From Planctomycetota bacterium (GTDB lineage: Bacteria > Planctomycetota > MHYJ01 > WSZJ01), in the NCBI GenBank assembly GCA_038060895.1, contig JBBTCT010000022.1:32001-96000 (forward strand): DNA of 64,000 nucleotides, read 5' to 3'. The translations under genes and the position numbers were made by a program. This document shows, one piece after another, positions 41,104-62,756 of this stretch. Within the stretch, counting starts at the first letter, position 1, and each line of letters starts with the position of its first letter. The notes under the pieces are model-generated. The model worked only from the letters and a program-made list of their open reading frames with translations. It ran no database searches and was not told the origin of the DNA.

Positions 41104-41176
41104 GGGGCTCCTGAGGCGGGGGATCCTGATGCCGTCGCCAGCATGTCAGGAGGTGTGTTCGCGGACCCGGTGATTT

Positions 41177-41413: not shown

Positions 41414-42730
41414 ATGACGATTTCGGAAGGGCCTTCGATCCTGGCCGTCGCGGCCCGGATTCCCCCGTACGAATTGCGGGCCGCCGACGTCGCGCGGGCG
41501 TGCGGCCGGCCCCCGGGACCCGGATCCCGCCGGTTCGGGTCATGGGACGAGGACGCATTCACCCTGGCCTTCGCCGCGGCCGATCGGTGCCTCGACGTCG
41601 CGGGCCGTCCGGAAGTGCGTTCCCTGCTTGTTGCGTCCACCACCTGGCCCCAGGCCGTCGCACCGCAGGCCGAACGCCTCGCGACCGCGCTGGACCTGAA
41701 GCCCGACGTCGAGACCGCAACCCTCGCCGGATCTCTCCGCGGCGGAGTCGCGGCCCTTCGCATCGCCCTGGGCGGCGCGCGGCTCCCGGCCCTCGTGGTT
41801 GCAGCCGAGCGCATGGACCGGCCAGCGGGAAACGACGCGGAAGCGTCCGTGGGCGACGCCGGAGTCGCCATCCTCGTCGGCCACGGCGGATTCGCGCGGC
41901 TGGAGCGATGGACGACTCGAAGCGAGGCGGCGGCGTGGGACTCCGCCGATGTGCGCTTCCTGCAGGAGCAGGCGGCGCGGCTCGTCTCCGGGGCGCCTCG
42001 CGAAGGATGTTCGCGCGCGGCGATCTCGGCGCCCGGGAGCCGCCTCGCTCGTGCGGCGGCGCAGAAACTCGGACTGCCGGGCACCGACGCGGCGATGGAC
42101 CGGATTGGTTTCTGCGGCGCGGCGCACCCGCTTCTGGCGCTCGTGGAAGCGATGGAAGGCGCGCGCCCGGGCGAACCGGTGCTGTGGGCGGCCTGCACGG
42201 AGGGACTCGACGCCGCGGTCCTGCACGTTACCGGGGCGGCGGTCGGGAAGTCCTTTGCCGAAGGGCTGGAGCGGGCGACGCCCGTGGCGGAATACGGGAA
42301 GTGGCTCGCCTCGAGGCGCTTCTTTGAAACGGAAGCATCGCGGGAGGTGTTCCGTTCTCCTGCGATGGAACATCGCGACGAAGAGCATCTCCTGCGGCTG
42401 CACGCGGCGAAGTGCAAGGCGTGCGGCCGGCTGGACGCCTTGCCCGGGCCCTGCTGTCCCGCGTGCGGCGAACCGCGCGGGACCGGGCGCGTTCCGCTTC
42501 GCAGGACGGGAACGGTCTTCACGTTCACGCACGAGTCGTACGTGCCGACGCCGTGGCCGCCGGTGACCATGGCGGTGGTGGACCTGGACGGCGGCGGCAG
42601 GATCCTGGTCCCGGCCGCGGACGTTTCTCCGGAAGCCGTGCGCATCGGCCTGCGAGTCCGGCTCGTGCTCCGGCGCCTGCACATGGGCGGCGGGGTGCCG
42701 AACTACTACTGGAAGGCGGTCCCCGAATGA
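41414..42730 (+). CDS. HMG-CoA-synthase-like domain fused to a DUF35 Zn-ribbon/OB-fold domain
   Basis: DEDAFTLA near the N-terminus; CKACG..CPAC, GTVFTFT and YYWKA at the C-terminus. Confidence 0.82.
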   Translation: MTISEGPSILAVAARIPPYELRAADVARACGRPPGPGSRRFGSWDEDAFTLAFAAADRCLDVAGRPEVRSLLVASTTWPQAVAPQAERLATALDLKPDVETATLAGSLRGGVAALRIALGGARLPALVVAAERMDRPAGNDAEASVGDAGVAILVGHGGFARLERWTTRSEAAAWDSADVRFLQEQAARLVSGAPREGCSRAAISAPGSRLARAAAQKLGLPGTDAAMDRIGFCGAAHPLLALVEAMEGARPGEPVLWAACTEGLDAAVLHVTGAAVGKSFAEGLERATPVAEYGKWLASRRFFETEASREVFRSPAMEHRDEEHLLRLHAAKCKACGRLDALPGPCCPACGEPRGTGRVPLRRTGTVFTFTHESYVPTPWPPVTMAVVDLDGGGRILVPAADVSPEAVRIGLRVRLVLRRLHMGGGVPNYYWKAVPE

Positions 42731-43899
42731 GCGGCCGCGTGGCCATCGTCGGTGCGGGGTGCACGCCCTTCGGCGAGCATTTCGATCTCAGCTACACGGA
42801 CCTCGCCGCCGCGGCGTGCCGCGAAGCGCTGGGCGAGGCGGGAATGCGGCCGCGCGACGTCGGCGCGGCGTGGCTCGGGACGGCGTTTCCGGATGTCGGC
42901 GTCTTCCGCGGGCGATCGGGGATGGATCTGGTGGAAGCGCTGGGGCTCGGGGCGTGCCCTGTGACGCGCGTCTCGAACTACTGCGCGACCGGCGGCGACG
43001 CGATCCGTAACGCGGCGAATGCGCTTCTCGCAGGGGACTGCGACATCGCGCTCGCGGTGGGGGTGGAGAAGCAGAGGGATCGCCCGCCGCAGGAGAGCAT
43101 CGTCAAGCTGATGGTGGAGACCGGGCATCCCTACTACCAGAAGGGTTTCACGGCGGCGGGGACGTTCGCGGTGTTCGCGGTGCGGCGGATGAAGGAGTTC
43201 GGGCTGAAGCGCGAGGATCTCGCGGCGGTCTCGGTGAAAAATCATGCGCATGCGGCGGGGAATCCGCGGGCGCACCACAGGAAAGCGGTCACGGTGGAAC
43301 AGGTGCTCGCGTCCGCGCCCGTCGCCTGGCCGCTGACTCTTCTCGACTGCTGTCCGACGACCGACGGCGCGGCGGCGGTGGTGCTGGTGCGGGAGGAGGA
43401 CGCGAAGAAGTATCCGGGTCGTGTGCTCGTCGCAGGAGTGGGGTTTGCGGTGACGTCGGGGTGGGACGCGCCGTTCCACGATCCGGCGTTTGATTTCATT
43501 GGATTCCCGGCGGTCCGCGAGGCGGCGCGGATCGCGTACGCGCGCGCGGGGATCGGCAACCCGGCGCGGGACGTGCACGTCGCGGAAGTGCACGACTGCT
43601 TCACGATCAACGAACTGATCGCGTGCGAGGACCTCGGGTTCTGCGGGCGCGGGGAGTCGGCGAAGCTGATCGCGGACGGGGTGACGAAGCTGGGCGGGAA
43701 ACTGCCGGTGAATCCCGGCGGCGGGCTGCTCTCGTGCGGGCATCCCGTGGGCGCGACCGGCGTGCGCATGGTGCACGACGTCGTGAGGCAGCTTCAGGGG
43801 AAGGCGGGGAAGTGCCAGGTGCCCGGCGCGCGGGTCGGGCTGACGCAGAACATCGGTGGGCCGGGGGCGGTGGCGTTCGTGTCGGTGCTGACCACATGA
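42727..43899 (+). CDS. SCP2/archaeal-type thiolase (IaaA-like)
   Basis: NYCATG, EVHDCF, GHPVGATG. Confidence 0.9.
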   Translation: MSGRVAIVGAGCTPFGEHFDLSYTDLAAAACREALGEAGMRPRDVGAAWLGTAFPDVGVFRGRSGMDLVEALGLGACPVTRVSNYCATGGDAIRNAANALLAGDCDIALAVGVEKQRDRPPQESIVKLMVETGHPYYQKGFTAAGTFAVFAVRRMKEFGLKREDLAAVSVKNHAHAAGNPRAHHRKAVTVEQVLASAPVAWPLTLLDCCPTTDGAAAVVLVREEDAKKYPGRVLVAGVGFAVTSGWDAPFHDPAFDFIGFPAVREAARIAYARAGIGNPARDVHVAEVHDCFTINELIACEDLGFCGRGESAKLIADGVTKLGGKLPVNPGGGLLSCGHPVGATGVRMVHDVVRQLQGKAGKCQVPGARVGLTQNIGGPGAVAFVSVLTT

Positions 43900-44324
43900 C
43901 GAAACCCCCTTCCGGCGCGCGTCCGCCGCGCGTCCTCGTCGCCAAGCCCGGCCTCGACGGGCACGACAAGGGCGCGAAGGTGGTCGTGCAGGCTCTTCGC
44001 GACGCAGGGATGGAGGTCATCTACTCGGGTCTGCACGCGTCGCCTGAGGCGGTCGTGAAGGCGGCGATCGAGGAGGACGTGGACGTGGTCGGGCTGAGCG
44101 TGCTGTCAGGGGCGCACCTGCCGATCTGCCGGCGCGTCTGCGACGGCCTCCGCGGGACCGGAAAGGCGGTGGTGCTCGGCGGCGTGGTGCCGCAGGGCGA
44201 CGAGGCCGAGTTGCGCGCGATGGGGGTCGAAGCGGTGTTCCGCATGGGCGCCCCGTTCGAGGAGATCGCCGAGTGGATCCGTCACAGGACCGGAAAGTCG
44301 TCGCCGAGTCCGGCTTCGAAATAA
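43896..44324 (+). CDS. acyl-CoA mutase cobalamin-binding subunit
   Basis: KPGLDGHDKG (DxHxxG), GLSVLSGAH. Confidence 0.93.
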   Translation: MTKPPSGARPPRVLVAKPGLDGHDKGAKVVVQALRDAGMEVIYSGLHASPEAVVKAAIEEDVDVVGLSVLSGAHLPICRRVCDGLRGTGKAVVLGGVVPQGDEAELRAMGVEAVFRMGAPFEEIAEWIRHRTGKSSPSPASK

Positions 44325-45862
44325 AGCCGGTCTACACGGCCGCCGACGCCGCGGGACTCGATCCCGGACGGCCGGGGGAGTTTCCGTTCACGCGCGGCAT
44401 CCACCCGCAGATGTACCGGAAGCAGCCGTGGACGATGCGCCAGTACGCGGGGTTCGGGACGCCCGCGCAGACCAACGAGCGGTTCCGCTCCCTCATCGCG
44501 CACGGGCAGAACGCCCTGAACGTGGCGTTCGATCTTCCGACGCAGCTCGGGCTCGACTCGGACGACCCGCGGGCGGAAGGAGAGGTCGGGCGGGTCGGGA
44601 TGGCCGTGGACACGCTGGACGACATGGAGCGGGCCTTCGAGGGGATCCCGCTCGGCAAAGTGTCGACGGCGCTGACCATCAACGCGCCGGCCCTCGTCAT
44701 GCTCGCGATGCACCTCGCGGCGGCGGAGAAACAGGGCGTCCCGGCCACCGAGGTCCGCGGAACGCTTCAGAATGACATCCTCAAGGAGTTCATCGGCCGC
44801 GGCGCCTGGATCTACCCCGCGGGTCCCTCGGTCCGCCTCGTCGCCGACTCGATCGAGTACTGCGCGAAGTCCGCGCCGAAATACAACGCCGTCTCCGTCT
44901 GCGGTTACCACCTGCGCGAGAGCGGCGCGACCCCGGCCGAGGAAATGGCGCTCGCGTTCGAAATCGCCCGCGCCTACCTCGACTCCGCGATCGCCCGCGG
45001 CGTCACCGTCGACGACGTGGCCGGCAAGATCACCTTCAACCTCAACGTCTTCGGCAACCTCTGGGAACAGGTCGCGAAATTCCGGGCGGGGCGGAAGCGA
45101 TGGGCCTCGATCGTGCGCGACGAGTACCGCGCGAAGGAACCGAAGTCCGCGCAGCTGCGCATGCTCGCGGGCGGCGGCGGCGGCGGCCTGACCATCGAGG
45201 AGCCCGAGAACAACATCGTCCGCGGCGCCTATTACGCCCTCGCCGCGGCCCTCGGCGGCGCGCAGACGATGGCCCTCTGCTGCTACGACGAGGCCTACAG
45301 CATCCCCACCGAAAAGGCGTCCCTCCTCTCTCTCCGCACCATGCAGATCCTCGCCGAGGAGGTCGGCCTCTGCGACACCGCGGACCCGCTCGGCGGATCG
45401 TATTTCGTGGAAGCGCTGACGGCGGAGATGGAGAAGAAGATCGTCGCGGCCGAGAAAGAAGTGCGTGCGCTGGGAGGCGTGGTGAAAGCGATCGAAGACG
45501 GGACGATCCAGCGGAAGCTCGCGCGCCAGGCCTACGAGTCGGAGAAGCGGCTCCGCTCGGGCGAGACGCCGAAAGTGGGGGTCAACCGCCACGCCGTCGC
45601 GGGCGCGCCCGCGCCGAAGGTCGAGACGCACCCGTACGACTCCGCCTCCGCAGACCGGAAAATCGGCGACCTGCGTGCCCTTCGCGCCCGCCGTTCGTCC
45701 GACGCGGTCCGCGCTTCCCTCGACGCCGTCCGCCGCGCCGCGGCCGGAACGGCAAACCTGGTGCCGCCGATCCTCGAGGCCGTGAAGGCCCGCGCGACCG
45801 TGGGCGAAATCTGCGGCACGCTCAAGGACGTCTTCGGCGAATTCCGGGAGCCGAGATTCTGA
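44273..45862 (+). CDS. B12-dependent acyl-CoA mutase large subunit (IaaG/H-like)
   Basis: WTMRQYAGF, FDLPTQ, QNDILKEF, GYHLRE, DPLGGSY. Confidence 0.92.
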   Translation: MDPSQDRKVVAESGFEIKPVYTAADAAGLDPGRPGEFPFTRGIHPQMYRKQPWTMRQYAGFGTPAQTNERFRSLIAHGQNALNVAFDLPTQLGLDSDDPRAEGEVGRVGMAVDTLDDMERAFEGIPLGKVSTALTINAPALVMLAMHLAAAEKQGVPATEVRGTLQNDILKEFIGRGAWIYPAGPSVRLVADSIEYCAKSAPKYNAVSVCGYHLRESGATPAEEMALAFEIARAYLDSAIARGVTVDDVAGKITFNLNVFGNLWEQVAKFRAGRKRWASIVRDEYRAKEPKSAQLRMLAGGGGGGLTIEEPENNIVRGAYYALAAALGGAQTMALCCYDEAYSIPTEKASLLSLRTMQILAEEVGLCDTADPLGGSYFVEALTAEMEKKIVAAEKEVRALGGVVKAIEDGTIQRKLARQAYESEKRLRSGETPKVGVNRHAVAGAPAPKVETHPYDSASADRKIGDLRALRARRSSDAVRASLDAVRRAAAGTANLVPPILEAVKARATVGEICGTLKDVFGEFREPRF

Positions 45863-47034
45863 TGCTCAAAGGATTCCGCATCCTCGACCTGACCCGCATG
45901 CTGGCGGGCCCGTACGCTTCCATGATCCTCGGCGATCTCGGCGCGGAGGTCGTGAAGATCGAGCCCCCCGAAGGCGACGAGATCCGGAAGATGGGGCCGC
46001 CGTTCGTGAAGGGGGAGTCCGCGTACTTCATGGCGGTCAACCGAAACAAGAAGTCCGTCGTGCTCGACCTGCGCGACCCGGCCGCGCGCGCCGCCTTCGA
46101 CCGGCTCGCCGCGAAAGCGGACGTCGTCCTCGATAACTTCCGCCCCGGAGTCATGGACCGTCTCGGGATCGGCCACACCCGCCTCCATGAGGTAAACCCG
46201 CGCCTCGTCCTCTGCTCGCTCACGTCGTTCGGCGAGGAAGGCCCGATGCGCGATCTTCCCGCGTTCGACCTCATCGTGCAGGCCTGGTCGGGAGCGCTTT
46301 CGCTGACGGGCGAGCCGGGCGGTTCCCCAGCGCGGCTCGGCATCCCGATGGGAGATCTCGCCGGCGGCATGTACTCCACAGTCGCGATCCTCGGGGCGCT
46401 TCTCGAGCGCACGAAAACCGGCAAGGGCCGCAGGCTGGAACTCTCGCTTCTCGACTGTCTCACCGCCATGACGACGTACCTCGCCCAGTACTGGTTCGCC
46501 GACGGAAAAGTCCCGGGCCCGCAGGGGACCCGGCACCTCTCCGTCGTCCCCTACGGCGCGTACGAGGCCGCCGACGGCTGCCTCGTGGTCGGCGTCTTCA
46601 CGGAGCGCTTCTGGCAGGGTTTCTGCCGCGCGCTCGGTCGGCCGGAGTGGGAGCTGGATCCGCGCTGGAGCGCGAACGAGTTGCGCGTGAAGAACCGGAA
46701 GGAACTCGAAGCGCTGATTGCGGAAACGCTCGCGGCGCTTCCCGTTCAGGAATGGCTGACGCGCCTCAATGCGGAAGGGGTTCCTGCCGCGCCTGTCCTC
46801 ACTCTCGACCGGACGCTCGGCCTCGAACAGCTCCTCCTGCGGGGCATGGTCCAGCGCTTCACACACCCGGTCGCCGGAGACGTCCCGACGCTGGGCGACC
46901 CGATCCTCCGGGGGCGCCCGGGGCCGCCGCCGCTGCTGGGGGAGCACACCGAATCCGTACTTCGCGAAATCGCGGGACTGTCCGCGGCCGAAGCGGCGGC
47001 GCTCGCGAAAGGGGGGCGCGCCGCGGCGCGTTGA
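45862..47034 (+). CDS. family III (CaiB/BaiF) CoA transferase
   Basis: DLTRMLAGP, NRNKKS, NFRPG, PAFD. Confidence 0.93.
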   Translation: MLKGFRILDLTRMLAGPYASMILGDLGAEVVKIEPPEGDEIRKMGPPFVKGESAYFMAVNRNKKSVVLDLRDPAARAAFDRLAAKADVVLDNFRPGVMDRLGIGHTRLHEVNPRLVLCSLTSFGEEGPMRDLPAFDLIVQAWSGALSLTGEPGGSPARLGIPMGDLAGGMYSTVAILGALLERTKTGKGRRLELSLLDCLTAMTTYLAQYWFADGKVPGPQGTRHLSVVPYGAYEAADGCLVVGVFTERFWQGFCRALGRPEWELDPRWSANELRVKNRKELEALIAETLAALPVQEWLTRLNAEGVPAAPVLTLDRTLGLEQLLLRGMVQRFTHPVAGDVPTLGDPILRGRPGPPPLLGEHTESVLREIAGLSAAEAAALAKGGRAAAR

Positions 47035-47040
47035 CCCCGA

Positions 47041-47059
47041 TGATGAAGCACATTAACCT
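47041..47059. promoter_or_regulatory. operator palindrome, site 6 (degenerate)
   Basis: TGATGAA-GCACA-TTAACCT; the reverse complement shares TTAATGTGCTT with site 7. Confidence 0.5.
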
Positions 47060-47098
47060 TCTTGTGAGGCGGCGGCCCGCAACATTCCGGAGCCCGGC

Positions 47099-49150
47099 AT
47101 GCGCATAGGAATCGACGTCGGCGGCACATTCACGGACGTCATCGGGATCGACCGCGAAGCCCGGGTGACGGTGCGGAAGACGTACACCACGCCGGCGGAC
47201 CCGTCGGAGGGAGTCGTGACGGGGATCGGGAAGCTGCTGGCGGCCGCCGGCGCGACGGCCCGTGACGCGGAGCTCGTCGTGCACGGGACGACGATCGGCA
47301 CCAACGCGCTCCTGACGCGGAACGGCGTGAAGACGGGCATGCTCACGACGGCCGGCTTTCGCGACGTCCTCGAGATCGGCCGGGTGCAGCGCCCCGCCGC
47401 GGGCCTGTACGACATCAACGTGGACAATCCTCCGCCTCTCGTACCCCGGGCGCTCCGGCTTGAGGCCGTCGAGCGTGTCGGGAGCAAAGGCGAGGTGGTC
47501 ACGCCGCTCGACGAGGCGTCCGTCCGCGTCGCGGCCGGTGTCTTCCGCGTCGAAAAAGTCCGCGCCGTCGCCGTCTGCTTCCTCTTCTCGTTTCTCAATC
47601 CGTCGCACGAAAGACGCGCCCGCGAGATCCTCGCGAAGGAACTCCCCGGGGTTTACGTCGCGATTTCGAGCGACGTGTGCCCCGAGTTCCGCGAATTCGA
47701 GCGCTCTTCGACCGTCGTGATCAGCGCTTACCTCGCGCCGATCGTGGAGTCGTACGTGGAAAGGCTGTCGAAACGCCTTGCGGACAGCTACCCGTCGACG
47801 CAACTGCGGCTGGTGCAGGCGAACGGCGGCGCGATGCGGGCGGCGGCGGCGAAGGGACGCGCGGTGCACCTCGTCAATTCGGGGCCGGCCGGGGGCGCGA
47901 CGGCGGCGGCCTGGCTCGGGCGGCTGACCGACGAACCGCAGATCGTCGCGGTGGACATGGGCGGGACATCGTTCGACATCAGCCTCATCGCGGAGGGAGT
48001 GGCGCACGTCACGACGACCGCGAAGTTCGACGGCTACCCGATCAAGATCGCCATGGACGACGTCAACGTCATCGGCGCCGGCGGCGGGTCGATCGCCTGG
48101 GTCGACCGCGGCGGCGCCCTCTGCGTCGGCCCCCAGAGCGCCTCCGCTGTCCCCGGCCCCGCCTGCTACGGCCGCGGCGGCGCCGAGCCCACCGTCACCG
48201 ACGCCAACGTCGCCCTCGGCCGCATCAGCCCCGGGTACTTCCTCGGCGGCGAAATCGCCCTCCGAAAGGACCTCGCCGAGAAAGTCATCCGCGACCGCGT
48301 CGCCGGACCCCTCGGCCTTTCCTTCGAGGAGGCCGCCTTCGGAATCCTCCGCGTCGTCAACGCGAACATGGCCAAGGGCATCGCCGCCGTCTCCACACAG
48401 CGCGGCCACGACCCCCGCGAGTTCTCCCTCCTCGCCTTCGGCGGCGCAGGGCCGCTTCACGCGGTAGAAATGGGCCTGGACCTGGCCATGAAGCGCGTCC
48501 TGATCCCGCCTTACCCGGGCGCCTTCTCGGCGTTCGGGTTGCTCGTCGCGGACACGCGCCACGATTTCACCCGCACGGTGATGATTTCGCAGGAAGACCT
48601 GGACCCGGCCGCCCTCGGGAGGACTTTCGCAGAGCTGGAGGAACGCGGCGTCGCGGAGCTGGAAGCGGACGGGATCGCGAGGAAGGACCGCCGGGTGCTC
48701 TGGTCCGCGGACCTGCGCTTCGAGGGACAGTCGTACGAGCTGAACGTGCCGGTGGGGCGGAAACCGAAGCCCGACGTGGAGTCGATGCTGACGGAGTTCG
48801 AGAAGCTGCACGAGCGGATCTACGCGTTCAAGGCCGTGGACGAACGGACGGTGGTGGTGAACCTGCGCGTCACGGCGATCGGCGTCACGCCGGAGATCGA
48901 CCTGCCGCGGCCGGCGAAGGGCACGAAGGACGCGAAAGGGGCGTTGAAGGGGAGGCGGAAGGTGTACTTCGGCGGGAAAGGGTGGGTGGACTCGGGGATC
49001 TACGAGCGGGCGAAGCTGAAGGCGGGGAACGTCGTCGCCGGCCCCGCCGTGGTGGAGGAGGAAATCTCATGCACCGTGGTGCCGCCGGGACTGTCGCTGC
49101 TCGTGGACGCGTTCGGGGTGCTGGTCGTGGACCTGGAGGGAACGCGATGA
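47099..49150 (+). CDS. hydantoinase/oxoprolinase subunit A (ATP-dependent lactam hydrolase)
   Basis: DVGGTFTD, SGPAGG, DMGGTSFD, GAGGGS, PTVTDAN. Confidence 0.93.
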   Translation: MRIGIDVGGTFTDVIGIDREARVTVRKTYTTPADPSEGVVTGIGKLLAAAGATARDAELVVHGTTIGTNALLTRNGVKTGMLTTAGFRDVLEIGRVQRPAAGLYDINVDNPPPLVPRALRLEAVERVGSKGEVVTPLDEASVRVAAGVFRVEKVRAVAVCFLFSFLNPSHERRAREILAKELPGVYVAISSDVCPEFREFERSSTVVISAYLAPIVESYVERLSKRLADSYPSTQLRLVQANGGAMRAAAAKGRAVHLVNSGPAGGATAAAWLGRLTDEPQIVAVDMGGTSFDISLIAEGVAHVTTTAKFDGYPIKIAMDDVNVIGAGGGSIAWVDRGGALCVGPQSASAVPGPACYGRGGAEPTVTDANVALGRISPGYFLGGEIALRKDLAEKVIRDRVAGPLGLSFEEAAFGILRVVNANMAKGIAAVSTQRGHDPREFSLLAFGGAGPLHAVEMGLDLAMKRVLIPPYPGAFSAFGLLVADTRHDFTRTVMISQEDLDPAALGRTFAELEERGVAELEADGIARKDRRVLWSADLRFEGQSYELNVPVGRKPKPDVESMLTEFEKLHERIYAFKAVDERTVVVNLRVTAIGVTPEIDLPRPAKGTKDAKGALKGRRKVYFGGKGWVDSGIYERAKLKAGNVVAGPAVVEEEISCTVVPPGLSLLVDAFGVLVVDLEGTR

Positions 49151-52390: not shown

Positions 52391-52441
52391 AGCGCAGACA
52401 AGAGACTCGCCATTCCCGCCATCCCTGTTTCGAGGTTCACC

Positions 52442-53146: not shown

Positions 53147-53320
53147 GCAAGCGAGGGGGGACGGAGGCCGCCGGATGCCGACGGCGAGTCCCGGCGACCC
53201 GTTCTCGAGCGGCCCTTCAGGGCGCCATGAAGAATGGGTGATGTTTTTCCCGATCCGGAAACCCGTACCGCTCCGCGCCTGTATGAGCGCGGTGGCGGAA
53301 TGAAAAACAAGGAACCTCAC

Positions 53321-54040: not shown

Positions 54041-54087
54041 GGAGGATCTCCCGACTTGTTGCGGGCGGCGCGCGAAGAAGGGCCAGT

Positions 54088-54168
54088 CGGTAGGGGGTAG
54101 TTGGTAGGGGGTAGGTATGTCTCCTGCGACAGCGGTCGTTCCTACCCACTACCCCCTACCCCCTGCCG
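54088..54168. repeat. inverted arrays of heptamer repeats, (GGGTAGG)x4 and (CCTACCC)x4, between convergent genes
   Basis: read directly; imperfect units. Confidence 0.8.
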
Positions 54169-54171
54169 TTC

Positions 54172-54612
54172 CTACTTTGCAGCGAATAGCTTCGCCCCCA
54201 CGATCTCCACCAGGATCTCCGGCTGCGGACACGCGTGACCTTCGCCGGAACCGCTTCCTTCTCCGCCCTTGGCCGCTCCCATCACGCGCACCACGCCCTG
54301 CACCAGCACGCGCTGCCCGACGCAGTCTTTGGGGAAGAGGACTGAATCGTTGAGGCTCTTCGCGATCGTCTTTCCCTTCCCGTCATCGACTTCCACCCAG
54401 CAGCCACGGCCCTGGCAGACGCCACGGACGGTGCCCTCGATCTGAACTTGCTTGCCCTTGAGCGCCTCGTTGAGGTCTGCCACCGGAGTGACGGTCCCCC
54501 TGTCGAACTTCGCGCCGCCTTCCCAGGCCGCCGCAGAGGGGGTTTCTTCCGTGGTGCTGCAGGCCGCGAGGACAAGCGCCGCCAGGCAGGCCGTTGCCGT
54601 TTTCAGTCTCAT
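54172..54612 (-). CDS. DUF4920-like lipoprotein
   Basis: lipobox LAAC; VCQGRGCW; FPKD. Confidence 0.75.
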   Translation of the reverse strand: MRLKTATACLAALVLAACSTTEETPSAAAWEGGAKFDRGTVTPVADLNEALKGKQVQIEGTVRGVCQGRGCWVEVDDGKGKTIAKSLNDSVLFPKDCVGQRVLVQGVVRVMGAAKGGEGSGSGEGHACPQPEILVEIVGAKLFAAK

Positions 54613-56612: not shown

Positions 56613-56679
56613 TGCCGGATGTGCCGTTGCGCTGCCCGTCACTTGCGCCTCCGTTCTGAAAGGAACGAAACTCTCGCTT

Positions 56680-57066
56680 TTACAGGACGGCAAACCCCTC
56701 GATTTCCACCTTCGCTCCCGCTTCCACAAACCCCGCGACCTGCAGGCACGTCATCGCGGGATAGTGCTTCCCCATGATCCGTTTGTACTCGGGGCCGAGC
56801 GACTTGAGCGACGCGTTGTACTCGTCCTTCGAGCCGATGAAGATCGCCAGCCGGACGATGTTCTCCGCCCGCCCGCCCGCGGCCTTCACGACGTCCACCA
56901 CATTCTGAAGCGCCTGCGCGAACTGTTTCACGAAGTCGTCGCCGACGAGTTTCGAATCCTTGTCCCATCCCACCTGACCGGCGACCGCGAGGAACGTTCC
57001 CGTCGCCTTGACGCCGTTGTTGTATCCGAGCGGTTTCGCCCAGCCGGGCGGATTAACGATTTCCAC
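56680..57066 (-). CDS. RidA/YjgF family enamine/imine deaminase
   Basis: PPGWAKPLGY, AGQVGWD, HYPAM, VEIE. Confidence 0.9.
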   Translation of the reverse strand: MEIVNPPGWAKPLGYNNGVKATGTFLAVAGQVGWDKDSKLVGDDFVKQFAQALQNVVDVVKAAGGRAENIVRLAIFIGSKDEYNASLKSLGPEYKRIMGKHYPAMTCLQVAGFVEAGAKVEIEGFAVL

Positions 57067-59251
57067 GAAGGGCTCTCCACACTCTTTCAGGGGTCATCGG
57101 GAACTCGCGCATCCGGACGCCCGTCGCGTCCGCGATCGCATTTGCAATCGCCGGCCCGATCGGGACGATCGGCGCCTCGCCGATGCCCTTCGCGCCGAAC
57201 GGCCCTTCGGGATCGTTGGTCTCGACGAGGACGGTCTCGATCTCGGGGATGTCGCGCAGTCCGGGCATGCGGTAGTCGAGGAAGAACCCGTTCTGCATCT
57301 TGCCGTCTTTGAGGACGCACTCTTCGAACAGGGCGTAGCCGAGGCCCTGGATCACGCCGCCTTCGACCTGCCCTTCGGCGTGCATCGGGTTAATCGCCTT
57401 CCCGATGTCGTGAGCCGCGACGATGCGCTTTACCACGACCTGCCCGGTCTCGGTGTCCACCTCGACCTCGACGCCGTGGCAGCCCCAGGTGTAGGCGGCG
57501 GAGACGTTGCCGTGGTTCGCCTTGTCGACCATCGTCGTGGGCGGGTCGTAGAAGACGCTCGCGACGATGAGGCGGCCTTTCTGGCGGAAGTGCTCGGCGC
57601 GGACGACCTTGTCGATCGACGCGTCGGCGGGGAGTTTCAGCGCCGCGCGGGCGTCCTCGATCTGCTTCTTTGCTTCCTTGGCCGCAAGCCGCACGGCGTT
57701 GCCGGCGATGAAAGTCGTGCGGGAGGCGTGGACGCCGACGTCCCAGAGGCGGATGTCCGTGTCGGCTTGCGTGGCGACCCGGACCATGGACACGGGGACG
57801 CCGATTTCGTCCGCGGCGATCTGGGCCATCGCGGTCTCCATCCCCTGGCCGATGTCCGTCGCGCCGACGATGACGACGACCTTGCCGAAATCGTCCACCT
57901 TGACGGTCGCGCCGCAACCGTCGCTCCGGTAGATGCGCGCGCCGCCGCCGACGTGGAACACCGCCGCAATGCCGATCCCGCGCCGCAGGTGCGGCAGCGC
58001 TGAAGCGGCCGGCCGTTTGAGGCGCGTCCTCACCGCCTCCAGGACTTCCTTGAACCCGCACGACGTGATCCGCCCGCCCGCCGGCGTCGTCTCCTCGGAG
58101 CGGTTCGCGTTTTTCAGCCGGAAATCGATCGGGTCGATGTGAAGCGCCTTCGCCAGTTCGTCCATCTGGGATTCCATGGCGAAGAGGAGTTCGGGATTGC
58201 CGAAGCCGCGGAACGCGCCGGTGGGCTGCGTGTTCGTGCAGACGGTCCGCGCCTTGTAACGCGCTGCGGGGCACTGGTAGAAGTTCCCGAAGGTGTTGAC
58301 CATGACGACCGGCGTCATGGCGCCCCACGAGACGTACGCGCCGCAGTCCACGAGGATGTCGGCGTCGCGGCCGAGCAGCGTGCCGTCGGCGGCCGCGGCC
58401 GTGCGCAGGCGGACGACGGTCCGCGGCCGGACCGGGTCGGTCTGGAAGTCCTCGTCACGCGAGAAGACGATCCGGACGGGCGTTCCGGTTTTCTTCGCGA
58501 GAAGCGCGACGATCGCCTCGTGCGGGTAGAGGTCGAGGCGCGCGCCGAACGCGCCGCCGATGCACGGCTGGACGAGCCGGATGTCCGCCGGAGAAATGTC
58601 GAGGGCTTCCGCGAGGTCGCGCTGGACGAGGAACGGGATCTGCGTCGGGTCGTGGAGCGTCAGACGGCCGTTCGCGTCCCACTCGGCGATCGCTCCGGCC
58701 GGCCCGAGGCACCCGTGCTGCTGCGCCGGCAGGATGAACGTCCCTTCGACGATCTTCGCCGCGTTCGAGAACGCTTCCTCGATCTTCCCGTGCTCGTAGT
58801 GGTGCGTCTGGACGAGGTTCGACCCGCGCGCTTCGTGCAGGACTGGCGCCCCCGGCTCCAGCGCCGCCTCCATCTCGTACACCGCCGGAAGCGGCTCGAT
58901 CAGCACCTTGATCCGCTCGCACGCCTCGATCGCCGCTTCGATGTCCGTCGCCGCGACCGCCGCGAGCTCGTCGCCGATCCGTCTCACGCGGTCGCCTTTC
59001 AGTGCCACCTGGTCCTTCGAGTACCCCCACACCTTCGCCGGGATGTCCTTCGCCGTCAGGATCGCCCGCACTCCCGGCACCTTCCACGCCTCCGTCACGT
59101 CAATCGACACGATCCGCCCGTGCGGCACCTTGCTCCGCAGGATCTTCGCCTCGAGCATCCCCGCCAGCCGCAGGTCCTGGACATACCGCGACTTGCCGGT
59201 CGCTTTGTCCGCCGCGTCAAGCTTGGGGACGCGTTGTCCGACGCTCTTCAC
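57053..59251 (-). CDS. xanthine dehydrogenase-family molybdenum subunit (candidate indoleacetate hydroxylase)
   Basis: GGAFG, AFRGFG, DIGQG, GQVEGG, AKGIGE. Confidence 0.92.
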   Translation of the reverse strand: MKSVGQRVPKLDAADKATGKSRYVQDLRLAGMLEAKILRSKVPHGRIVSIDVTEAWKVPGVRAILTAKDIPAKVWGYSKDQVALKGDRVRRIGDELAAVAATDIEAAIEACERIKVLIEPLPAVYEMEAALEPGAPVLHEARGSNLVQTHHYEHGKIEEAFSNAAKIVEGTFILPAQQHGCLGPAGAIAEWDANGRLTLHDPTQIPFLVQRDLAEALDISPADIRLVQPCIGGAFGARLDLYPHEAIVALLAKKTGTPVRIVFSRDEDFQTDPVRPRTVVRLRTAAAADGTLLGRDADILVDCGAYVSWGAMTPVVMVNTFGNFYQCPAARYKARTVCTNTQPTGAFRGFGNPELLFAMESQMDELAKALHIDPIDFRLKNANRSEETTPAGGRITSCGFKEVLEAVRTRLKRPAASALPHLRRGIGIAAVFHVGGGARIYRSDGCGATVKVDDFGKVVVIVGATDIGQGMETAMAQIAADEIGVPVSMVRVATQADTDIRLWDVGVHASRTTFIAGNAVRLAAKEAKKQIEDARAALKLPADASIDKVVRAEHFRQKGRLIVASVFYDPPTTMVDKANHGNVSAAYTWGCHGVEVEVDTETGQVVVKRIVAAHDIGKAINPMHAEGQVEGGVIQGLGYALFEECVLKDGKMQNGFFLDYRMPGLRDIPEIETVLVETNDPEGPFGAKGIGEAPIVPIGPAIANAIADATGVRMREFPMTPERVWRALRGNR

Positions 59252-59654
59252 GGATCGCCTCCTGGATCTTCTTGTACCCCGTGCACCGGCACAGGTTCCC
59301 CTCCGGCACGTCCTCCGTCTTCGCCGCGAGGATCATCCCCGGCGTGCAGAACCCGCACTGGATCGCCCCCTTCGCGATGAACGCCTCCTGCATCGGGTCG
59401 AGCTTTCCATTCTTCGCAAGGCCTTCGATCGTCGTGATGGAAGCGCCTTCCGCGTCCGGGGCGAGAACGAGGCACGAGACGAGCGGCTTGCCGTTCACGA
59501 GCACGGTGCACGCGCCGCAGTCTCCGGTCGAGCAGCCTTCGCGCACTCCGGCGAGCCCGAGGTCGTTGCGGAGGACCTCGAGCAGCGTCCGGTGCGGCTC
59601 GATCTCGAGCGCGACAATGTTCCCGTTCACCGTCATCGTGAGACTCCGCTTCAT
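59217..59654 (-). CDS. XDH-family 2Fe-2S subunit
   Basis: GCSTGDCGAC, QCGFCTPG, NLCRCTGY. Confidence 0.93.
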   Translation of the reverse strand: MKRSLTMTVNGNIVALEIEPHRTLLEVLRNDLGLAGVREGCSTGDCGACTVLVNGKPLVSCLVLAPDAEGASITTIEGLAKNGKLDPMQEAFIAKGAIQCGFCTPGMILAAKTEDVPEGNLCRCTGYKKIQEAIREERRTTRPQA

Positions 59655-60427
59655 GAGGCCACCCTTTCCAGCGCCCGCCTCACGAGCACGCGCACCATCT
59701 CCCGCCGGTATTCCGCTGAGGCCCGGATGTCGTCGATCGGCGAACAACGCCTCACGGCCTCTTCCACCGAGGGCGGCACCCGGATCGGAGTCGGGGAGAC
59801 CGCGCCAAGCGCGAGCCGCACGTCCTTGCCGACCGCGGCGCACGCGACGCTCACGAACGCGAGGTCCATCGCGCGGCGCGTGCAGAACTTGATGAAGCAG
59901 CCCCTGGCCGTCGCCGCGGGGATGCGGATTTCTTTCAGGATCTCGTCGGGTCCCAGCGCAGTCTTCCCGGGTCCCAGGAAGAACTCCCTGAGCGGGATCA
60001 GCCGCTCCCCCCGTGTCCCCCACACGTTCAGCGTCGCGTCGAGGCAGAGCAGGGGAGGCGCGAGGTCCGCCGCGGGGGATGCATTGCACAGATTGCCGCC
60101 CGCCGTCGACATCGCCCGGACCTGCGGCGATCCCATCTCGTGCACGGTCTCCACGAGCATCGGCCAGCGATTCGCCACGATTTCCGATGCCGCCAGCTCG
60201 TCGAGCGTCGTGAGCGGCCCTACGAACACGTGATCGCCGCGCTCCTCGACCCCGCGCAGCCCACCGATCCGCTTCAGGTTGATCACCCGGTCCACCGTCC
60301 ACTCGCGCCGCTTCAGCCGCACGAGCAGGTCCGTGCCGCCCGCCAGCAACCGGTTTCGCCCGGGGCGCGCCATCAGCGCCGAGGCCTCTTCCAGCGTGCG
60401 CGGCTCTTCGTAGTCGAACGCTCTCAT
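59651..60427 (-). CDS. XDH-family FAD subunit
   Basis: AGGTDL, GGNLCNASPAAD, DDIRASAEYR. Confidence 0.92.
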   Translation of the reverse strand: MRAFDYEEPRTLEEASALMARPGRNRLLAGGTDLLVRLKRREWTVDRVINLKRIGGLRGVEERGDHVFVGPLTTLDELAASEIVANRWPMLVETVHEMGSPQVRAMSTAGGNLCNASPAADLAPPLLCLDATLNVWGTRGERLIPLREFFLGPGKTALGPDEILKEIRIPAATARGCFIKFCTRRAMDLAFVSVACAAVGKDVRLALGAVSPTPIRVPPSVEEAVRRCSPIDDIRASAEYRREMVRVLVRRALERVAS

Positions 60428-60948
60428 GCCTTCTCCGCGCCTTTGAGGAACGCCTGCCGGTTCGCTTCGACCGCTTTCGGCGGCGAGAGCTTCTCGAGGG
60501 CGGCGAGCAGGGAAGCGCGCGCCGGGAAGGCGCCAGGCGCGGCGGTGGACGAGAAGCCGAGGAGTGCGATGTTCGCCGCGCGGGTGGCGTTCAGCTCCCG
60601 GGCGATCGCCGACGCGTCGAGCGACCGCGCGCCTTCGGCCGCCGTCGCGTTCACGAAGCACGCGCCGCCTTCGCGCAGGAACGACCGCGCGTCCGCCAGC
60701 CGGGTCACGTCGATCGCGACCGTCACATCGGCTTTCCCGCGGCGCACCAGCGGCCCCTCGAACCCGCCGATCTTCACATGCGACTCGACGGCGCCGCCGC
60801 GCTGGGACATCCCGTGCGTCTCGCTGACGATGGCGTCGCGTCCCTCCATCTCCGCCGCTTCCGCGAGGAGCCGAGTGACGAAGAGAATCCCCTGGCCGCC
60901 GAGGCCGAAGATGACGATCTGGGAACGCGTCGCGGCGGCGGCGATCAC
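60424..60948 (-). CDS. iorB: indolepyruvate:ferredoxin oxidoreductase beta subunit
   Basis: GLGGQG, SETHGMSQRGG. Confidence 0.88.
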   Translation of the reverse strand: MIAAAATRSQIVIFGLGGQGILFVTRLLAEAAEMEGRDAIVSETHGMSQRGGAVESHVKIGGFEGPLVRRGKADVTVAIDVTRLADARSFLREGGACFVNATAAEGARSLDASAIARELNATRAANIALLGFSSTAAPGAFPARASLLAALEKLSPPKAVEANRQAFLKGAEKA

Positions 60949-62756
60949 GTGAGCGGGACCTCCTTCTTCAGCGGCAGGATCGCGTCGGACGGGCACATGT
61001 ACACACACTGGCCGCAGTCGATGCACTTCGTATGGTCGATCACCACCTTCCCCGTCGCCCGGTCCTTCACGAGTCCCGGGCACTCGCACATCTTGAGGCA
61101 GTAATCGCACCCGTCGCACAGTCCCGAGTCGATCTCCACGGGCGTCCGGACCTCGGGCGGCTGGTAGAGCGCGCAGGGACGCCGCGCGACGACGACTGCG
61201 ATCCCGCCCTCGGGTTCCTTCGTCCAGGCCCGCGCTTCCTTGAGAATCGCGATTCCGCCCTCGACGTCGTACGGGTCCGTCGTCCGGACCCATTTGACGC
61301 CCACGGCCCGGCAGATGGCCTCGATGCTCGCGCCGGCGTCCGCGGGCGTCGGCTGCGCGCCGGTCATGGCGACGATGCCGTTGTCGGAGACGACGCAGAC
61401 GAAGCGTGCGCGGGCGGCGACGGCGTTGAGAAGGGCGGGGATGCCGCTGTGGAAGAACGTGGAGTCGCCGATGATCGCGACGATCGGGATGTCTTTTCCA
61501 TCGAGCCGGTGCGCGCGCCAGAAACCTGTCGCCATGGTGATCGACGCCCCCATGTCGAGGCAGGTGTCGATCGCGCGCTGGTTGGTGCCGAGCGTGTAGC
61601 AACCGATGTCGCCTGCGAAGATGGCGCCCGGCATCGCCAGCTTGAGCTCGTAGAAAACCGAACGATGCCCGCACCCCGGGCAGAGGCGGGGGGGAAGCGG
61701 CGCCGACGGCGGCGCGGGGGGCGGCGGCCGGCAGCCGAGGAGGCGGGCGACGACCTCGGGGGTCAGCTCCCCGTGCCCGGGCACGTGGCCGGTCAGCCGT
61801 CCCTGGACATCGCGCCGGTCCGGGATCTGCATCTCGATCGCAGCATCCGGCTCCTCGATGACGAGCACGCGGTCGTGGCGCGCGACGAAGCGCGTGACGA
61901 GGCCGAGGGGAAGCGGGTACGGGGTCCCGATGCGGAGGACGGGGATGTCGAGCCCTTCTTCGGCCAGGACGTCGCTCACGGCGGCGGCCACGCAACCGCC
62001 GGCGATGATCCCGAACGGCGTCGGCCGCGGGTCTTCGACATTGAACGGCGACGTCTCGAACTCCGCGCGGATCGCCTCGAGCTTCGCGTTGAGCTCCGCG
62101 TGAAGCGGCAGCCGGAACCGCGGCGTCGCGGCCCAGCGTTCGGGGTCCTTCGAGAATTTCGCCGGCCGCGGCCGCCGGTCGAGCGGCCCGGCATCGATCG
62201 CCTGCCGCGAGTGGCAGACGCGCGTCGTCGGTCGCAGCAGGACCGGGAGCCGGTGCCGCTCCGACAATTCCATTGCCGCCATCGCCATCGCCCGCGCTTC
62301 CCGCGGTGTCGACGGGTCGAACACGGGGGTCTTCGCGAAGATCGCGAAGAGCCGCGTGTCCTGCTCCGTCTGCGACGAGTGCGGCCCGGGGTCGTCGGCT
62401 GCGACCACCACGAAGCCGCCTAGGCATCCGGTGTAGGCCGCCGAGAGCAGCGAGTCGCTCGCGACGTTCAGACCGACCTGCTTCATTGCCACCGCGGTGC
62501 GCTTCCCGCACATCGACGCCGCCAGAGCGACGTCGAACGCGATCTTTTCGTTCACGGACCATTCGGTGGCGACTGCGGCGCCGAGGGCGTCGCGCTGGCG
62601 CACGATCTCCTCGAGGATCTCGGTGCTGGGCGTCCCGGGGTACGCGGTCGCGACCTCGCAGCCGGCCTCGATCAGGCCGCGCGCAATGGCGCCGTTGCCG
62701 AGAAGGACTTCCCGGGCAGGCGCCGAAGTCTGTTTCAGGGACGTGTCGGGGTCCAC
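60945..62756 (-). CDS. iorA: indolepyruvate:ferredoxin oxidoreductase alpha subunit
   Basis: YPGTPSTE, SQTEQD, CPGCGH, GDSTFFHSG, two C-terminal 4Fe-4S motifs. Confidence 0.92.
   Translation of the reverse strand: MDPDTSLKQTSAPAREVLLGNGAIARGLIEAGCEVATAYPGTPSTEILEEIVRQRDALGAAVATEWSVNEKIAFDVALAASMCGKRTAVAMKQVGLNVASDSLLSAAYTGCLGGFVVVAADDPGPHSSQTEQDTRLFAIFAKTPVFDPSTPREARAMAMAAMELSERHRLPVLLRPTTRVCHSRQAIDAGPLDRRPRPAKFSKDPERWAATPRFRLPLHAELNAKLEAIRAEFETSPFNVEDPRPTPFGIIAGGCVAAAVSDVLAEEGLDIPVLRIGTPYPLPLGLVTRFVARHDRVLVIEEPDAAIEMQIPDRRDVQGRLTGHVPGHGELTPEVVARLLGCRPPPPAPPSAPLPPRLCPGCGHRSVFYELKLAMPGAIFAGDIGCYTLGTNQRAIDTCLDMGASITMATGFWRAHRLDGKDIPIVAIIGDSTFFHSGIPALLNAVAARARFVCVVSDNGIVAMTGAQPTPADAGASIEAICRAVGVKWVRTTDPYDVEGGIAILKEARAWTKEPEGGIAVVVARRPCALYQPPEVRTPVEIDSGLCDGCDYCLKMCECPGLVKDRATGKVVIDHTKCIDCGQCVYMCPSDAILPLKKEVPLT

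Follow-up and report, generated by a model that had tools for sequence, protein, structure and literature searches.

A gene cluster of iaa type, probably for anaerobic indole side-chain degradation, next to an aryl-CoA reductase operon in a Planctomycetota genome

We examined a 64,000-nucleotide stretch of a Planctomycetota genome (contig JBBTCT010000022.1 of assembly GCA_038060895.1), referred to hereafter as the window, in which the genes between 36.3 and 62.8 kb resemble those of iaa operons for the anaerobic degradation of indoleacetate. Because the G+C content of the window is 60-71%, genes were picked by third-position G+C and then checked with Pfam and NCBIfam. Three transcription units adjoin: a minus-strand unit from 40445 to 36314, a plus-strand unit from 41414 to 54040 and, convergent with it, a minus-strand unit from 62756 to 54172. 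Positions 41414-62756 are thus occupied by two convergent, translationally coupled operons, with start/stop overlaps of 1-4 bases from the gene of a fusion protein through that of an acyl-CoA dehydrogenase and over most of the unit that runs from IorA to a DUF4920 protein. A preliminary description of this DNA had given a gene list with coordinates for the same interval, and every enzyme class named there, except an AMP-forming ligase, could be placed with Pfam and NCBIfam.

The acyl-CoA dehydrogenase gene (51266-52390, plus strand) is the marker of the cluster. A GGG motif and the names of its homologs assign the product to the IaaF type, the decarboxylating benzylmalonyl-CoA dehydrogenases: it reads LLIGGGTSEI at the site where other acyl-CoA dehydrogenases have YEG, and its C-terminal stretch is RFLLIGGGTSEILRNV. 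According to Schühle et al. 2021 (PMC8360864), the IaaF subclass has GGG throughout, compared with YEG or close variants elsewhere among acyl-CoA dehydrogenases, all members of the subclass are encoded in iaa-type operons, and IaaF is a decarboxylating benzylmalonyl-CoA dehydrogenase whose reaction runs irreversibly in the degradative direction. GGG was found in 120 of the 120 best homologs from a collection of 5.8 billion proteins, the closest of which were proteins of Planctomycetota metagenome-assembled genomes (MAGs) at 94-95% identity, and in all 80 loci anchored on the dehydrogenase (see below). The four readable acyl-CoA dehydrogenase paralogs of the same genome have YEG or FEG, and tblastn against the whole 5.4 Mb assembly, which is 86.5% complete and defines the scope of every genome-wide search reported here, detected no second IaaF-type gene. 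Two homologs (65% and 57% identical) carry the JGI name benzylmalonyl-CoA dehydrogenase. The genome has one electron-transfer flavoprotein (ETF) pair, on another contig.

The plus-strand operon opens with a gene (41414-42730) for a 438-residue protein in which a PhlA/HMG-CoA-synthase-like domain is fused to a DUF35 (Zn-ribbon/OB) domain (Pfam OB_ChsH2_C, residues 360-420). PDB matches were PhlA (9skh and 5m3k), HMGCS (6esq_I), the DUF35 domain of ChsH2 (6ok1_B) and a further DUF35 protein (6esq_E); the C-terminal part resembles the DUF35 domains of BbsA, ChsH2 and the archaeal scaffold, and no cysteine was seen in the printed alignment of the fusion to PhlA. The fusion, which is kept as one frame in related loci L005 (60% identity) and L003 (57%), is a probable scaffold partner of the next product, an SCP2-type thiolase of the BbsB/archaeal type (42727-43899; PRK06157, 405 bits, above the cut-off of 403; BbsB, 205 bits). 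The thiolase matched 7yvy, 6esq_A and BbsB 7pxp_C, and the cysteine of its segment NYCATGG, which we take to be the nucleophile, aligns with CASGG of 7yvy. There follow the B12-binding small subunit (43896-44324; Pfam B12-binding; TIGR00640, 133 bits, above cut-off) and the large subunit (44273-45862; Pfam MM_CoA_mutase, 610 bits) of an IaaG/H-like acyl-CoA mutase of the methylmalonyl-CoA mutase family. This two-subunit B12 mutase is encoded inside the same coupled operon as the IaaF-type dehydrogenase and is 55-65% identical to IaaF-linked mutases of other phyla, compared to 46-47% for the genome's own two paralogs.

Next comes a CoA-transferase (45862-47034; Pfam CoA_transf_3, 420 bits) of family III, the family of the phenylsuccinyl-CoA transferase IaaL of iaa clusters. 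Its nearest solved chain is succinate-hydroxymethylglutarate CoA-transferase 9br6, with benzylsuccinate CoA-transferase lower in the list, and its type was met in 3 of the 80 related loci. Hydantoinase/oxoprolinase A, of the ATP-dependent lactamase type (47099-49150; Pfam Hydantoinase_A, N- and C-terminal domains), and hydantoinase B (49147-50787; Pfam Hydantoinase_B, 596 bits) have as their nearest named family caprolactamase, an ATP-dependent lactam hydrolase (alpha, 618 bits with a cut-off of 1000; beta, 307 bits, below cut-off), and the ring-opening feature of iaa clusters is thereby matched at family level. The pair belongs to a subtype accompanied by a small V4R-domain protein (50784-51269; Pfam V4R): across phyla HydA is 51-59% and HydB 63-68% identical within this subtype, while identity to the other subtype (e.g. 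L076) is 35-40%. The V4R gene was found in at least 21 of the 80 loci, directly after HydB wherever the gene order was printed. Behind the marker gene the operon ends with a DUF2249 and cupin protein (52442-53146; Pfam), which had no match in any of the 80 loci, and a HEAT-repeat protein (53234-54040; Pfam HEAT_2), which among these loci was present in L001 and L006 only.

The convergent minus-strand operon begins with the alpha (IorA, 60945-62756) and beta (IorB, 60424-60948) subunits of a putative indolepyruvate:ferredoxin oxidoreductase (IOR). IorA matches the full TIGR03336 IOR_alpha profile with 608.3 bits (cut-off 650.9); IorB has the Pfam POR domain and scores 133 bits with the IOR beta model PRK06274.1-2 (cut-off 227). 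The architecture of IorAB is present, with an alpha subunit that has thiamine pyrophosphate and 4Fe-4S domains and a small POR-gamma-like beta subunit, and both scores lie below the equivalog cut-offs. The three subunits of a xanthine dehydrogenase (XDH)-family molybdenum hydroxylase follow, namely the FAD subunit (59651-60427; Pfam FAD_binding_5, CO_deh_flav_C), the 2Fe-2S subunit (59217-59654; Pfam Fer2, Fer2_2) and the molybdenum subunit (57053-59251; Pfam MoCoBD_1, MoCoBD_2, Ald_Xan_dh_C), a further iaa feature matched at family level. The nearest solved chain to the molybdenum subunit is the alpha subunit of 4-hydroxybenzoyl-CoA reductase (1rm6, 386 bits), followed by CoxL (284 bits). The XDH proteins are 46-53% identical to cluster-linked copies in other phyla, compared with 33-35% to paralogs in their own genome. 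The operon continues with a RidA-family imine/enamine deaminase (56680-57066; Pfam Ribonuc_L-PSP), an ADP-forming acyl-CoA synthetase with fused alpha and beta parts (54609-56642, the start lying between 56612 and 56729; Pfam CoA_binding_2, Succ_CoA_lig, ATP-grasp_5; AcCoA-syn-alpha, 383 bits with a cut-off of 567) and, as its last gene, a DUF4920 protein (54172-54612; Pfam), the N-terminus of which reads, by eye, like a lipoprotein signal. The preliminary description had the synthetase, RidA and IorAB extend the iaa set, and Pfam finds all three in this one operon. RidA occurs in 4 of the 80 loci, three from the same genus (96-97% identity) and L077, and the synthetase in one (L001); since both are confined to the genus apart from one RidA match, we regard them as add-ons.

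On the other side of the plus-strand operon, and on the minus strand, lie the four genes of a class I aryl-CoA reductase in the order C-B-A-D, two of the HGD-D type and two BcrAD-type ATPases. The BcrC-like subunit (39279-40445, with candidate starts at 40262-40445 in a frame open to 40628) scores 293.5 bits with benz_CoA_red_C versus 213 with HadC, and the BcrB-like catalytic subunit (37965-39260) 319.5 bits with benz_CoA_red_B versus 196 with HadB. The BcrA-like ATPase subunit (37117-37968) scores 231 bits with Pfam BcrAD_BadFG, 256 with CoA_E_activ and 212 with benz_CoA_red_A, and the BcrD-like ATPase subunit (36314-37120; Pfam BcrAD_BadFG) 199.7 bits with CoA_E_activ and 162 with benz_CoA_red_D. 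3-Methylbenzoyl-CoA reductase MbdO (9g87, E 1.6e-85) is the nearest solved chain to the BcrB-like protein, ahead of HadB (3o3m, E 1.5e-47). The Thauera bcr genes have the same C-B-A-D order. The cluster had been described as feeding a benzoyl-CoA reductase; reductase-like genes do adjoin it, at 36314-40628 on the minus strand and hence outside the stated interval of 41414-62756. No second BcrB or BcrC gene was found in the genome, so that the BcrCBAD-like enzyme is the only one of its kind detected, and no AFOR/BamB-type gene was matched. Between the reductase operon and the plus-strand operon lies a MarR-family gene (40546-41103, minus strand; Pfam MarR), the product of which is likely to regulate the cluster. 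There is no obvious MarR operator, as no inverted repeat was found in 41050-41450. The same Bcr and MarR set occurs at 78-91% identity in a Planctomycetia MAG (L070), beside an IaaF-type gene of another clade and with the MarR copy (78%) beside the Bcr genes, and in eight Chloroflexota loci BcrB/C-like genes stand directly 3' of the hydantoinase genes.

To compare neighborhoods, one genome per species was scanned with an alignment of the dehydrogenase family, which yielded 329 relatives, and the best 80 loci were kept; being those most similar to the window's dehydrogenase, they are an uneven sample of the family. Most are from MAGs of Anaerolineae/Chloroflexota and Planctomycetota, and the remainder are single Myxococcota, Acidobacteriota, Bacteroidota, Syntrophorhabdaceae, Thermodesulfobacteriota and LCP-89 records and one unclassified. 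Window proteins were counted as present at a tblastn E value of 1e-10 or better over half of the query, and genes taken from the related clusters at 35% identity or more and 60% coverage or more. Since many loci are short contigs, all counts are lower bounds. The B12-binding small subunit was present in at least 57 of the 80 loci and the large mutase subunit in at least 42, a family III CoA-transferase of any type in at least 51, the XDH-family molybdenum, Fe-S and FAD subunits in at least 48, 45 and 41, hydantoinases A and B in at least 36 each, and IorB and IorA in at least 31 and 30. BcrB/BcrC-like genes were counted at least 9 times, BcrA-like genes at least 8 times and the fusion protein and the SCP2 thiolase at least 5 times each; for RidA and the ADP-forming synthetase the minimum counts are 4 and 1. 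Genes common around the marker elsewhere are a class I/II aminotransferase (at least 49 loci), a glyoxalase-fold, epimerase-like protein (39), MaoC (21), a short-chain dehydrogenase/reductase (SDR; 21) and a conventional thiolase (20), and an AMP-forming ligase was found in at least 4.

The typical order in Chloroflexota is IorA-IorB-XDH (FAD, FeS, Mo)-X-Y-CoA-transferase-IaaF, followed after further genes by B12 small subunit-mutase-HydA-HydB and sometimes by BcrC-BcrB-ATPases, where X is the class I/II aminotransferase and Y the glyoxalase-fold protein (Pfam), possibly an epimerase; a MaoC dehydratase, an SDR and a conventional thiolase often come after IaaF. Dozens of loci in other phyla have this set of enzyme classes around the marker dehydrogenase, and the grouping is thus not due to chance. 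The earlier iaa-type reading of the window is strengthened by the GGG motif of the dehydrogenase and by its synteny in other phyla with mutase, CoA-transferase, hydantoinase A/B and XDH genes. Entry from tryptophan, which had also been suggested, is in keeping with the presence of IorAB in 30-31 of the 80 loci and of the aminotransferase in 49, including a same-genus relative: because these clusters as a rule include an aminotransferase and IorAB but seldom a ligase, an entry from tryptophan through indolepyruvate to indoleacetyl-CoA is supported.

Loci L001, L002 and L007, of the same genus as the window, share hydantoinase, IaaF and RidA/XDH-Mo at 90-97% identity, V4R at 78-85% and the mutase at only ~80%. 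Where the window has MarR, the fusion protein, the SCP2 thiolase and its own transferase, L007 has the aminotransferase, the common CoA-transferase and a conventional thiolase; since the upstream module of L007 differs in this way from 40546-47034 of the window, the cluster is mosaic even inside one genus, which suggests recent exchange of modules.

Taking genes and neighborhoods together, we think it probable that 36.3-62.8 kb encodes an iaa-type anaerobic route from tryptophan through indolepyruvate and an indole-3-acetyl unit to 2-aminobenzoyl-CoA and acetyl-CoA, with subsequent reduction of the ring. IorAB would oxidatively decarboxylate indolepyruvate to indoleacetyl-CoA; enzymes of this family give the thioester directly. 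Alternatively, the ADP-forming synthetase, acting in reverse, would activate free indoleacetate. Either enzyme would stand in for IaaB, the AMP-forming ligase, and the synthetase could serve to activate indoleacetate for one ATP-to-ADP step or to release it with a gain of ATP. The three-subunit XDH-family molybdenum enzyme would then hydroxylate C2 of the pyrrole ring, and ATP-dependent HydAB with its V4R partner would open the resulting lactam to (2-aminophenyl)succinyl-CoA. After transfer of the CoA to the other carboxyl group by the family III CoA-transferase, the two-subunit B12 mutase would rearrange the skeleton to (2-aminobenzyl)malonyl-CoA, which the IaaF-type dehydrogenase would oxidise and decarboxylate to 2-aminocinnamoyl-CoA; this is the sole step with a tested sequence signature. 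A hydratase and a dehydrogenase encoded elsewhere would process 2-aminocinnamoyl-CoA, and the SCP2-type thiolase, held by the PhlA/HMGCS-like::DUF35 fusion, would yield acetyl-CoA and 2-aminobenzoyl-CoA. The adjacent BcrCBAD-like, ATP-dependent reductase would dearomatise the aryl-CoA, and its substrate could be 2-aminobenzoyl-CoA rather than benzoyl-CoA.

Several observations weigh against this proposal. What is established here is which genes are present and how they are arranged, the IaaF motif, synteny conserved across loci and identity at family level, but every substrate, the order of the steps and the replacement of IaaB by IorAB are deduced from gene content, and the assignment to the iaa type draws on one motif, automated names and synteny. 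None of the IOR, BCR, hydantoinase and acyl-CoA synthetase subunits reaches its NCBIfam equivalog cut-off; for the BcrA-, B-, C- and D-like proteins the scores and cut-offs are 212/578, 319.5/486.55, 293.5/421.15 and 162/312.85, and for this reason the reductase is filed as a class I BCR-family aryl-CoA reductase with a putative substrate only. IorAB-like genes also sit in the aerobic iad locus of Variovorax, so that the presence of IorAB need not mean that indolepyruvate is the substrate. Where the preliminary description had a "CoA transferase/ligase", the transferase is there and Pfam found no AMP-forming CoA ligase of the IaaB type in the cluster; the genome has no homolog of the ligase of L076 and only a 25% match to that of L044. 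It likewise has no homolog of the clusters' MaoC, and its best match to their aminotransferase is only 33% identical. By sequence, several parts of the cluster are not orthologous to their counterparts in the majority of related clusters. For the CoA-transferase, identity reaches 71% with the L005 protein and 49-51% with the L055 and L071 proteins, but only 25-31% with the type found in 49 of the 80 loci. In the ligase-bearing Syntrophorhabdaceae cluster L076, whose layout we consider nearest to that published for iaa, XDH and hydantoinase belong to different subtypes, with 35-37% identity to those of the window.

The absence of a visible enoyl-CoA hydratase/dehydrogenase step, pointed out at the start, also counts against a complete route: neither an enoyl-CoA hydratase nor a 3-hydroxyacyl-CoA dehydrogenase is encoded in the cluster. 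Nor was either found in the flanks, upstream or downstream, of the nearest loci that share its modules (L003, L005 and L006). The glyoxalase-fold protein and the conventional thiolase of related clusters are absent from the window's cluster and have no homologs elsewhere in the genome. The window's only candidates, and uncertain ones, for either the missing side-chain hydratase and dehydrogenase or a lower benzoyl-CoA pathway are three plus-strand genes at 18882-21401 for an Oah-like crotonase, an SDR and a Dch-like crotonase (Pfam ECH_1, adh_short and ECH_1; dearomat_oah, 202 bits with a cut-off of 464; dienoyl_CoA_hyt, 163 with a cut-off of 292.5). The 361-residue crotonase, some 16 kb further upstream in the window, is the best Oah match in the whole genome, below the cut-off. 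These genes follow, in a plus-strand stretch at 16606-21401, that of a Nitro_FeMo-Co-like protein and that of a B12-binding radical SAM protein, and the stretch is possibly an unusual lower benzoyl-CoA pathway set in which the SDR replaces the zinc alcohol dehydrogenase. The SDR was considered as a counterpart of the SDR of related clusters and rejected, since its 42-51% identity to those of Chloroflexota clusters is no closer than that of the genome's other SDRs. A cluster on contig C7 with RidA, enoyl-CoA hydratase, acyl-CoA dehydrogenase and SDR genes was rejected as a source of the missing steps because it has no link to iaa genes. This locus (L103, G000:C7:108001-126000) encodes a thioesterase, an AMP-forming ligase, GNAT, creatininase, SDR and NUDIX proteins and a methyltransferase, together with a RidA paralog (50% identical), a crotonase and an acyl-CoA dehydrogenase with YEG.

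Other readings of the same genes were considered. The same enzyme logic might act on another substrate, an aryl- or alkyl-succinyl-CoA derived from a different N-heterocycle or lactam, such as a heterocycle from the environment or another acid made from an aryl-pyruvate; the mutase would rearrange it, and a GGG dehydrogenase with a specificity unlike that of IaaF would decarboxylate it. IOR-family enzymes are generally broad in their use of aryl-pyruvates, the IOR subunits fall short of their equivalog cut-offs, the XDH, hydantoinase and CoA-transferase subtypes differ from those of the ligase-bearing L076-type cluster, and the GGG-type genes of Planctomycetota span 439 to 692 bits on the family profile. 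IaaF itself takes medium-chain alkylmalonyl-CoAs at low rates (PMC8360864). Yet the combined need for ring hydroxylation, lactam opening and an aryl-succinyl/benzylmalonyl rearrangement, all following an aminotransferase/IOR pair, is accounted for by an indole ring alone, an aryl-CoA reductase lies alongside, and Schühle et al. place all members of the GGG subclass in iaa-type operons (PMC8360864); we regard a different substrate as unlikely. Somewhat less probable again is a division of labor between the two operons, whereby IorAB and the ADP-forming synthetase would oxidise aromatic amino acids to aryl acetates with a gain of ATP, the XDH-family enzyme would serve some other purpose, and the plus-strand operon alone would handle a compound of the aryl-succinate type; the two operons would then be neighbors by coincidence. 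IOR combined with an ADP-forming synthetase is an ATP-yielding module, as in fermentative archaea and clostridia, and the counts of the synthetase (1 of 80) and of RidA (4 of 80) mark them as lineage-specific additions. The IorAB genes are, however, contiguous and translationally coupled with the XDH genes, and about 30 loci from another phylum have IorA-IorB-XDH beside the genes for IaaF, the mutase and the hydantoinase.

A biosynthetic role, in which the cluster would make extender units of the benzylmalonyl-CoA type or an anthranilate-derived product, is very improbable. It has in its favor that benzylmalonyl-CoA is a known polyketide extender unit (PMC8360864) and that PhlA/PhlC-like proteins act, by their PDB names, in the formation of 2,4-diacetylphloroglucinol, but Pfam scans of the window and its flanks found no polyketide synthase or nonribosomal peptide synthetase domains, the IaaF reaction is reported to be irreversible in the degradative direction (PMC8360864), and a ring reductase lies next door.

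The iaa-type route that we prefer belongs to a pathway type that is already known, and the window holds a version with some swapped parts in a less familiar host. The iaa enzyme list of Aromatoleum is reportedly due to Ebenau-Jehle in 2012. Like the iaa clusters of Aromatoleum aromaticum EbN1 and A. evansii, the window encodes a GGG dehydrogenase, a two-subunit B12 mutase, a family III CoA-transferase, hydantoinase A/B and an XDH-family molybdenum enzyme, and, as there, a 2-aminobenzoyl-CoA end product would be passed to the benzoyl-CoA pathway (PMC8360864). Unlike those clusters, it has IorAB and an ADP-forming synthetase instead of an IaaB-type ligase, another type of family III CoA-transferase, and an SCP2 thiolase with the PhlA/HMGCS-like::DUF35 fusion; it adds RidA and V4R, its regulator is of the MarR family and no IaaM binding protein was seen in it. 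The window comes from a planctomycete and the Aromatoleum clusters from betaproteobacteria, and the likeness is at the level of enzyme families. For Ferroglobus placidus, Aklujkar et al. in 2014 reportedly proposed that tryptophan enters an iaa-like route by transamination and an indolepyruvate:ferredoxin oxidoreductase; the window shares this idea of an IOR entry, whereas F. placidus is an archaeal hyperthermophile. The iaa operons of F. placidus and of sulfate reducers carry their own ETF genes (PMC8360864), while the window's cluster has none and the genome's only pair is on another contig.

The closest parallels in gene order are the Anaerolineae/Chloroflexota and other Planctomycetota loci L008-L075, which have the same core (IorA-IorB-XDH ... 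CoA-transferase-IaaF ... B12-mutase-HydA-HydB, with or without V4R and BcrCBAD-like genes) but usually add the aminotransferase, the glyoxalase-fold gene, the MaoC hydratase, the SDR and the conventional thiolase, all of which the window's cluster lacks. No Aromatoleum locus was among the best 80 of the 329 relatives, and when homologs were sought from the Syntrophorhabdaceae protein of L076 as starting point, all the proteins listed were from Syntrophorhabdaceae, Syntrophus and deltaproteobacterial MAGs. A plasmid-borne iaa cluster was sought by protein search of a plasmid collection and rejected, as the sole match (43%), on a Massilia putida plasmid, lay in a beta-oxidation/ETF context without mutase or hydantoinase. 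The thiolase module resembles BbsAB, the archaeal thiolase/HMGCS/DUF35 complex and PhlACB in combining an SCP2-type thiolase with a DUF35 partner and an HMGCS/PhlA-like protein (7pxp, 6esq/6et9, 5m3k, 9skh), and differs from them in carrying the HMGCS/PhlA-like domain and DUF35 on a single polypeptide. The reductase shares with class I benzoyl-CoA reductases (Thauera BcrCBAD; MbdONQP) its C-B-A-D order, its two HGD-D-type and two BcrAD-type subunits and MbdO as nearest chain, and is set apart from them by the scores of all four subunits below the equivalog cut-offs.

A more far-reaching version of the iaa-type route, which combines the window with its Anaerolineae and Planctomycetota relatives, is put forward tentatively, and taken as a whole it is rather doubtful. 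Tryptophan would be mineralised by a self-contained pathway with all intermediates bound to CoA: IorAB would make indoleacetyl-CoA without free indoleacetate or a ligase, the molybdenum hydroxylase and the lactamase would act on thioesters, and the BcrCBAD-like enzyme would be a dedicated 2-aminobenzoyl-CoA reductase, after which RidA would aid enamine/imine hydrolysis with release of ammonia and hand the product to an Oah-type ring hydrolase. CoA-bound intermediates fit the similarity of the molybdenum subunit to 4-hydroxybenzoyl-CoA reductase, an enzyme that acts on an aryl-CoA, and the scheme is attractive for this reason and because IorAB yields a thioester and the published scheme likewise begins at the thioester. 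To our knowledge, no enzymes that remove the amino group of 2-aminobenzoyl-CoA have been identified, and if true, this version would name them. The starting compound of the published scheme is indoleacetyl-CoA (Fig. 1 legend, PMC8360864).

The marker gene is not confined to this genome. At a family-profile threshold of 439 bits or more there were 31 matches in 31 of 401 sampled Planctomycetota genomes, the window's own included, and the gene was present in 3 of 3 other sampled genomes of the genus and 3 of 3 of the order. GGG was read in 15 of 16 fetched matches at 439-514 bits (one was unreadable); of four matches at 402-409 bits, one had GGG and the others GEG or YEG. By this count of 31 in 401, the marker is a minority trait of the Planctomycetota and no oddity, and the preliminary remark that such a cluster would be unusual in a planctomycete was overstated. 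The host, represented by a MAG, is a groundwater planctomycete, and near-identical DNA occurs in groundwater and aquifer metagenomes from several studies. In two metatranscriptome libraries from one aquifer sample, contigs matched both operons, with identities of 99% or more in 24 of 26 and 14 of 16. These contigs gave some depth in 24 of 30 and 21 of 30 bins and none in six and nine. They are a weak hint that the cluster is expressed in that sample, against which it must be said that contigs in RNA libraries may be carried-over DNA.

Anaerobic breakdown of the indole side chain is documented biochemically in Aromatoleum and by gene clusters in some sulfate reducers and one archaeon (PMC8360864). 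In the literature searched, we found no earlier description of iaa clusters of Chloroflexota or Planctomycetota that are linked to IOR or an aminotransferase, nor one of such a thiolase/fusion module in an iaa setting; two papers that may bear on the point are Schühle 2016 and Aklujkar 2014. If the iaa-type reading is true, the capacity would extend to uncultured Planctomycetota and, more often, to Anaerolineae of groundwater and similar habitats, and since an aminotransferase and IorAB are as a rule part of the clusters in these groups, tryptophan from protein, and not auxin from plants, would be the natural substrate. 2-Aminobenzoylacetyl-CoA is unstable, and the variant in the window would offer a candidate thiolase module for it, besides candidates for CoA-ester early steps and for a reductase of 2-aminobenzoyl-CoA.

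Several other genes in and near the window deserve mention. The gene directly upstream of IorA, on the same strand (62824-63999) and cut off by the window edge, encodes a multi-pass membrane protein that matches no Pfam family and could be a transporter for the pathway substrate. Just beyond the window (L081, G000:C22:96001-116000) lie genes for an ApbE protein and a cytochrome-c-containing protein (a frame of 1348 residues) and RnfC- and RnfD-like genes; an Rnf complex could re-oxidise ferredoxin reduced by IorAB and supply low-potential electrons for the reductase. Plus-strand genes at 12172-16048 and 26124-28535 encode cytochrome c oxidase (subunits II, I and III) and a nitric oxide reductase of the NorB type that includes a cytochrome c-like domain, and with these genes the host looks like a respiring rather than a fermenting organism. 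On the minus strand at 3079-11020 there is a type II DMSO-reductase-family molybdenum enzyme. Its alpha subunit (1227 residues; TIGR03479, 368 bits; EbdA, 188; NarG, 149; all below cut-off) is accompanied by an Fe-S beta subunit and by a haem subunit in which EB_dh is joined to two cytochrome c domains. The enzyme could serve in respiration, like Nar or Nxr, or act as an anaerobic hydroxylase. The stretch at 33362-35721, which separates a kinase region from the reductase operon and has a lower G+C content (0.60), encodes a Fic-like_C/HATPase_c_4 protein and a protein with HTH and IrrE/M78 peptidase domains, and may be a small mobile or defence island. The window also contains DUF1501/DUF1800 pairs, which are typical of Planctomycetota.

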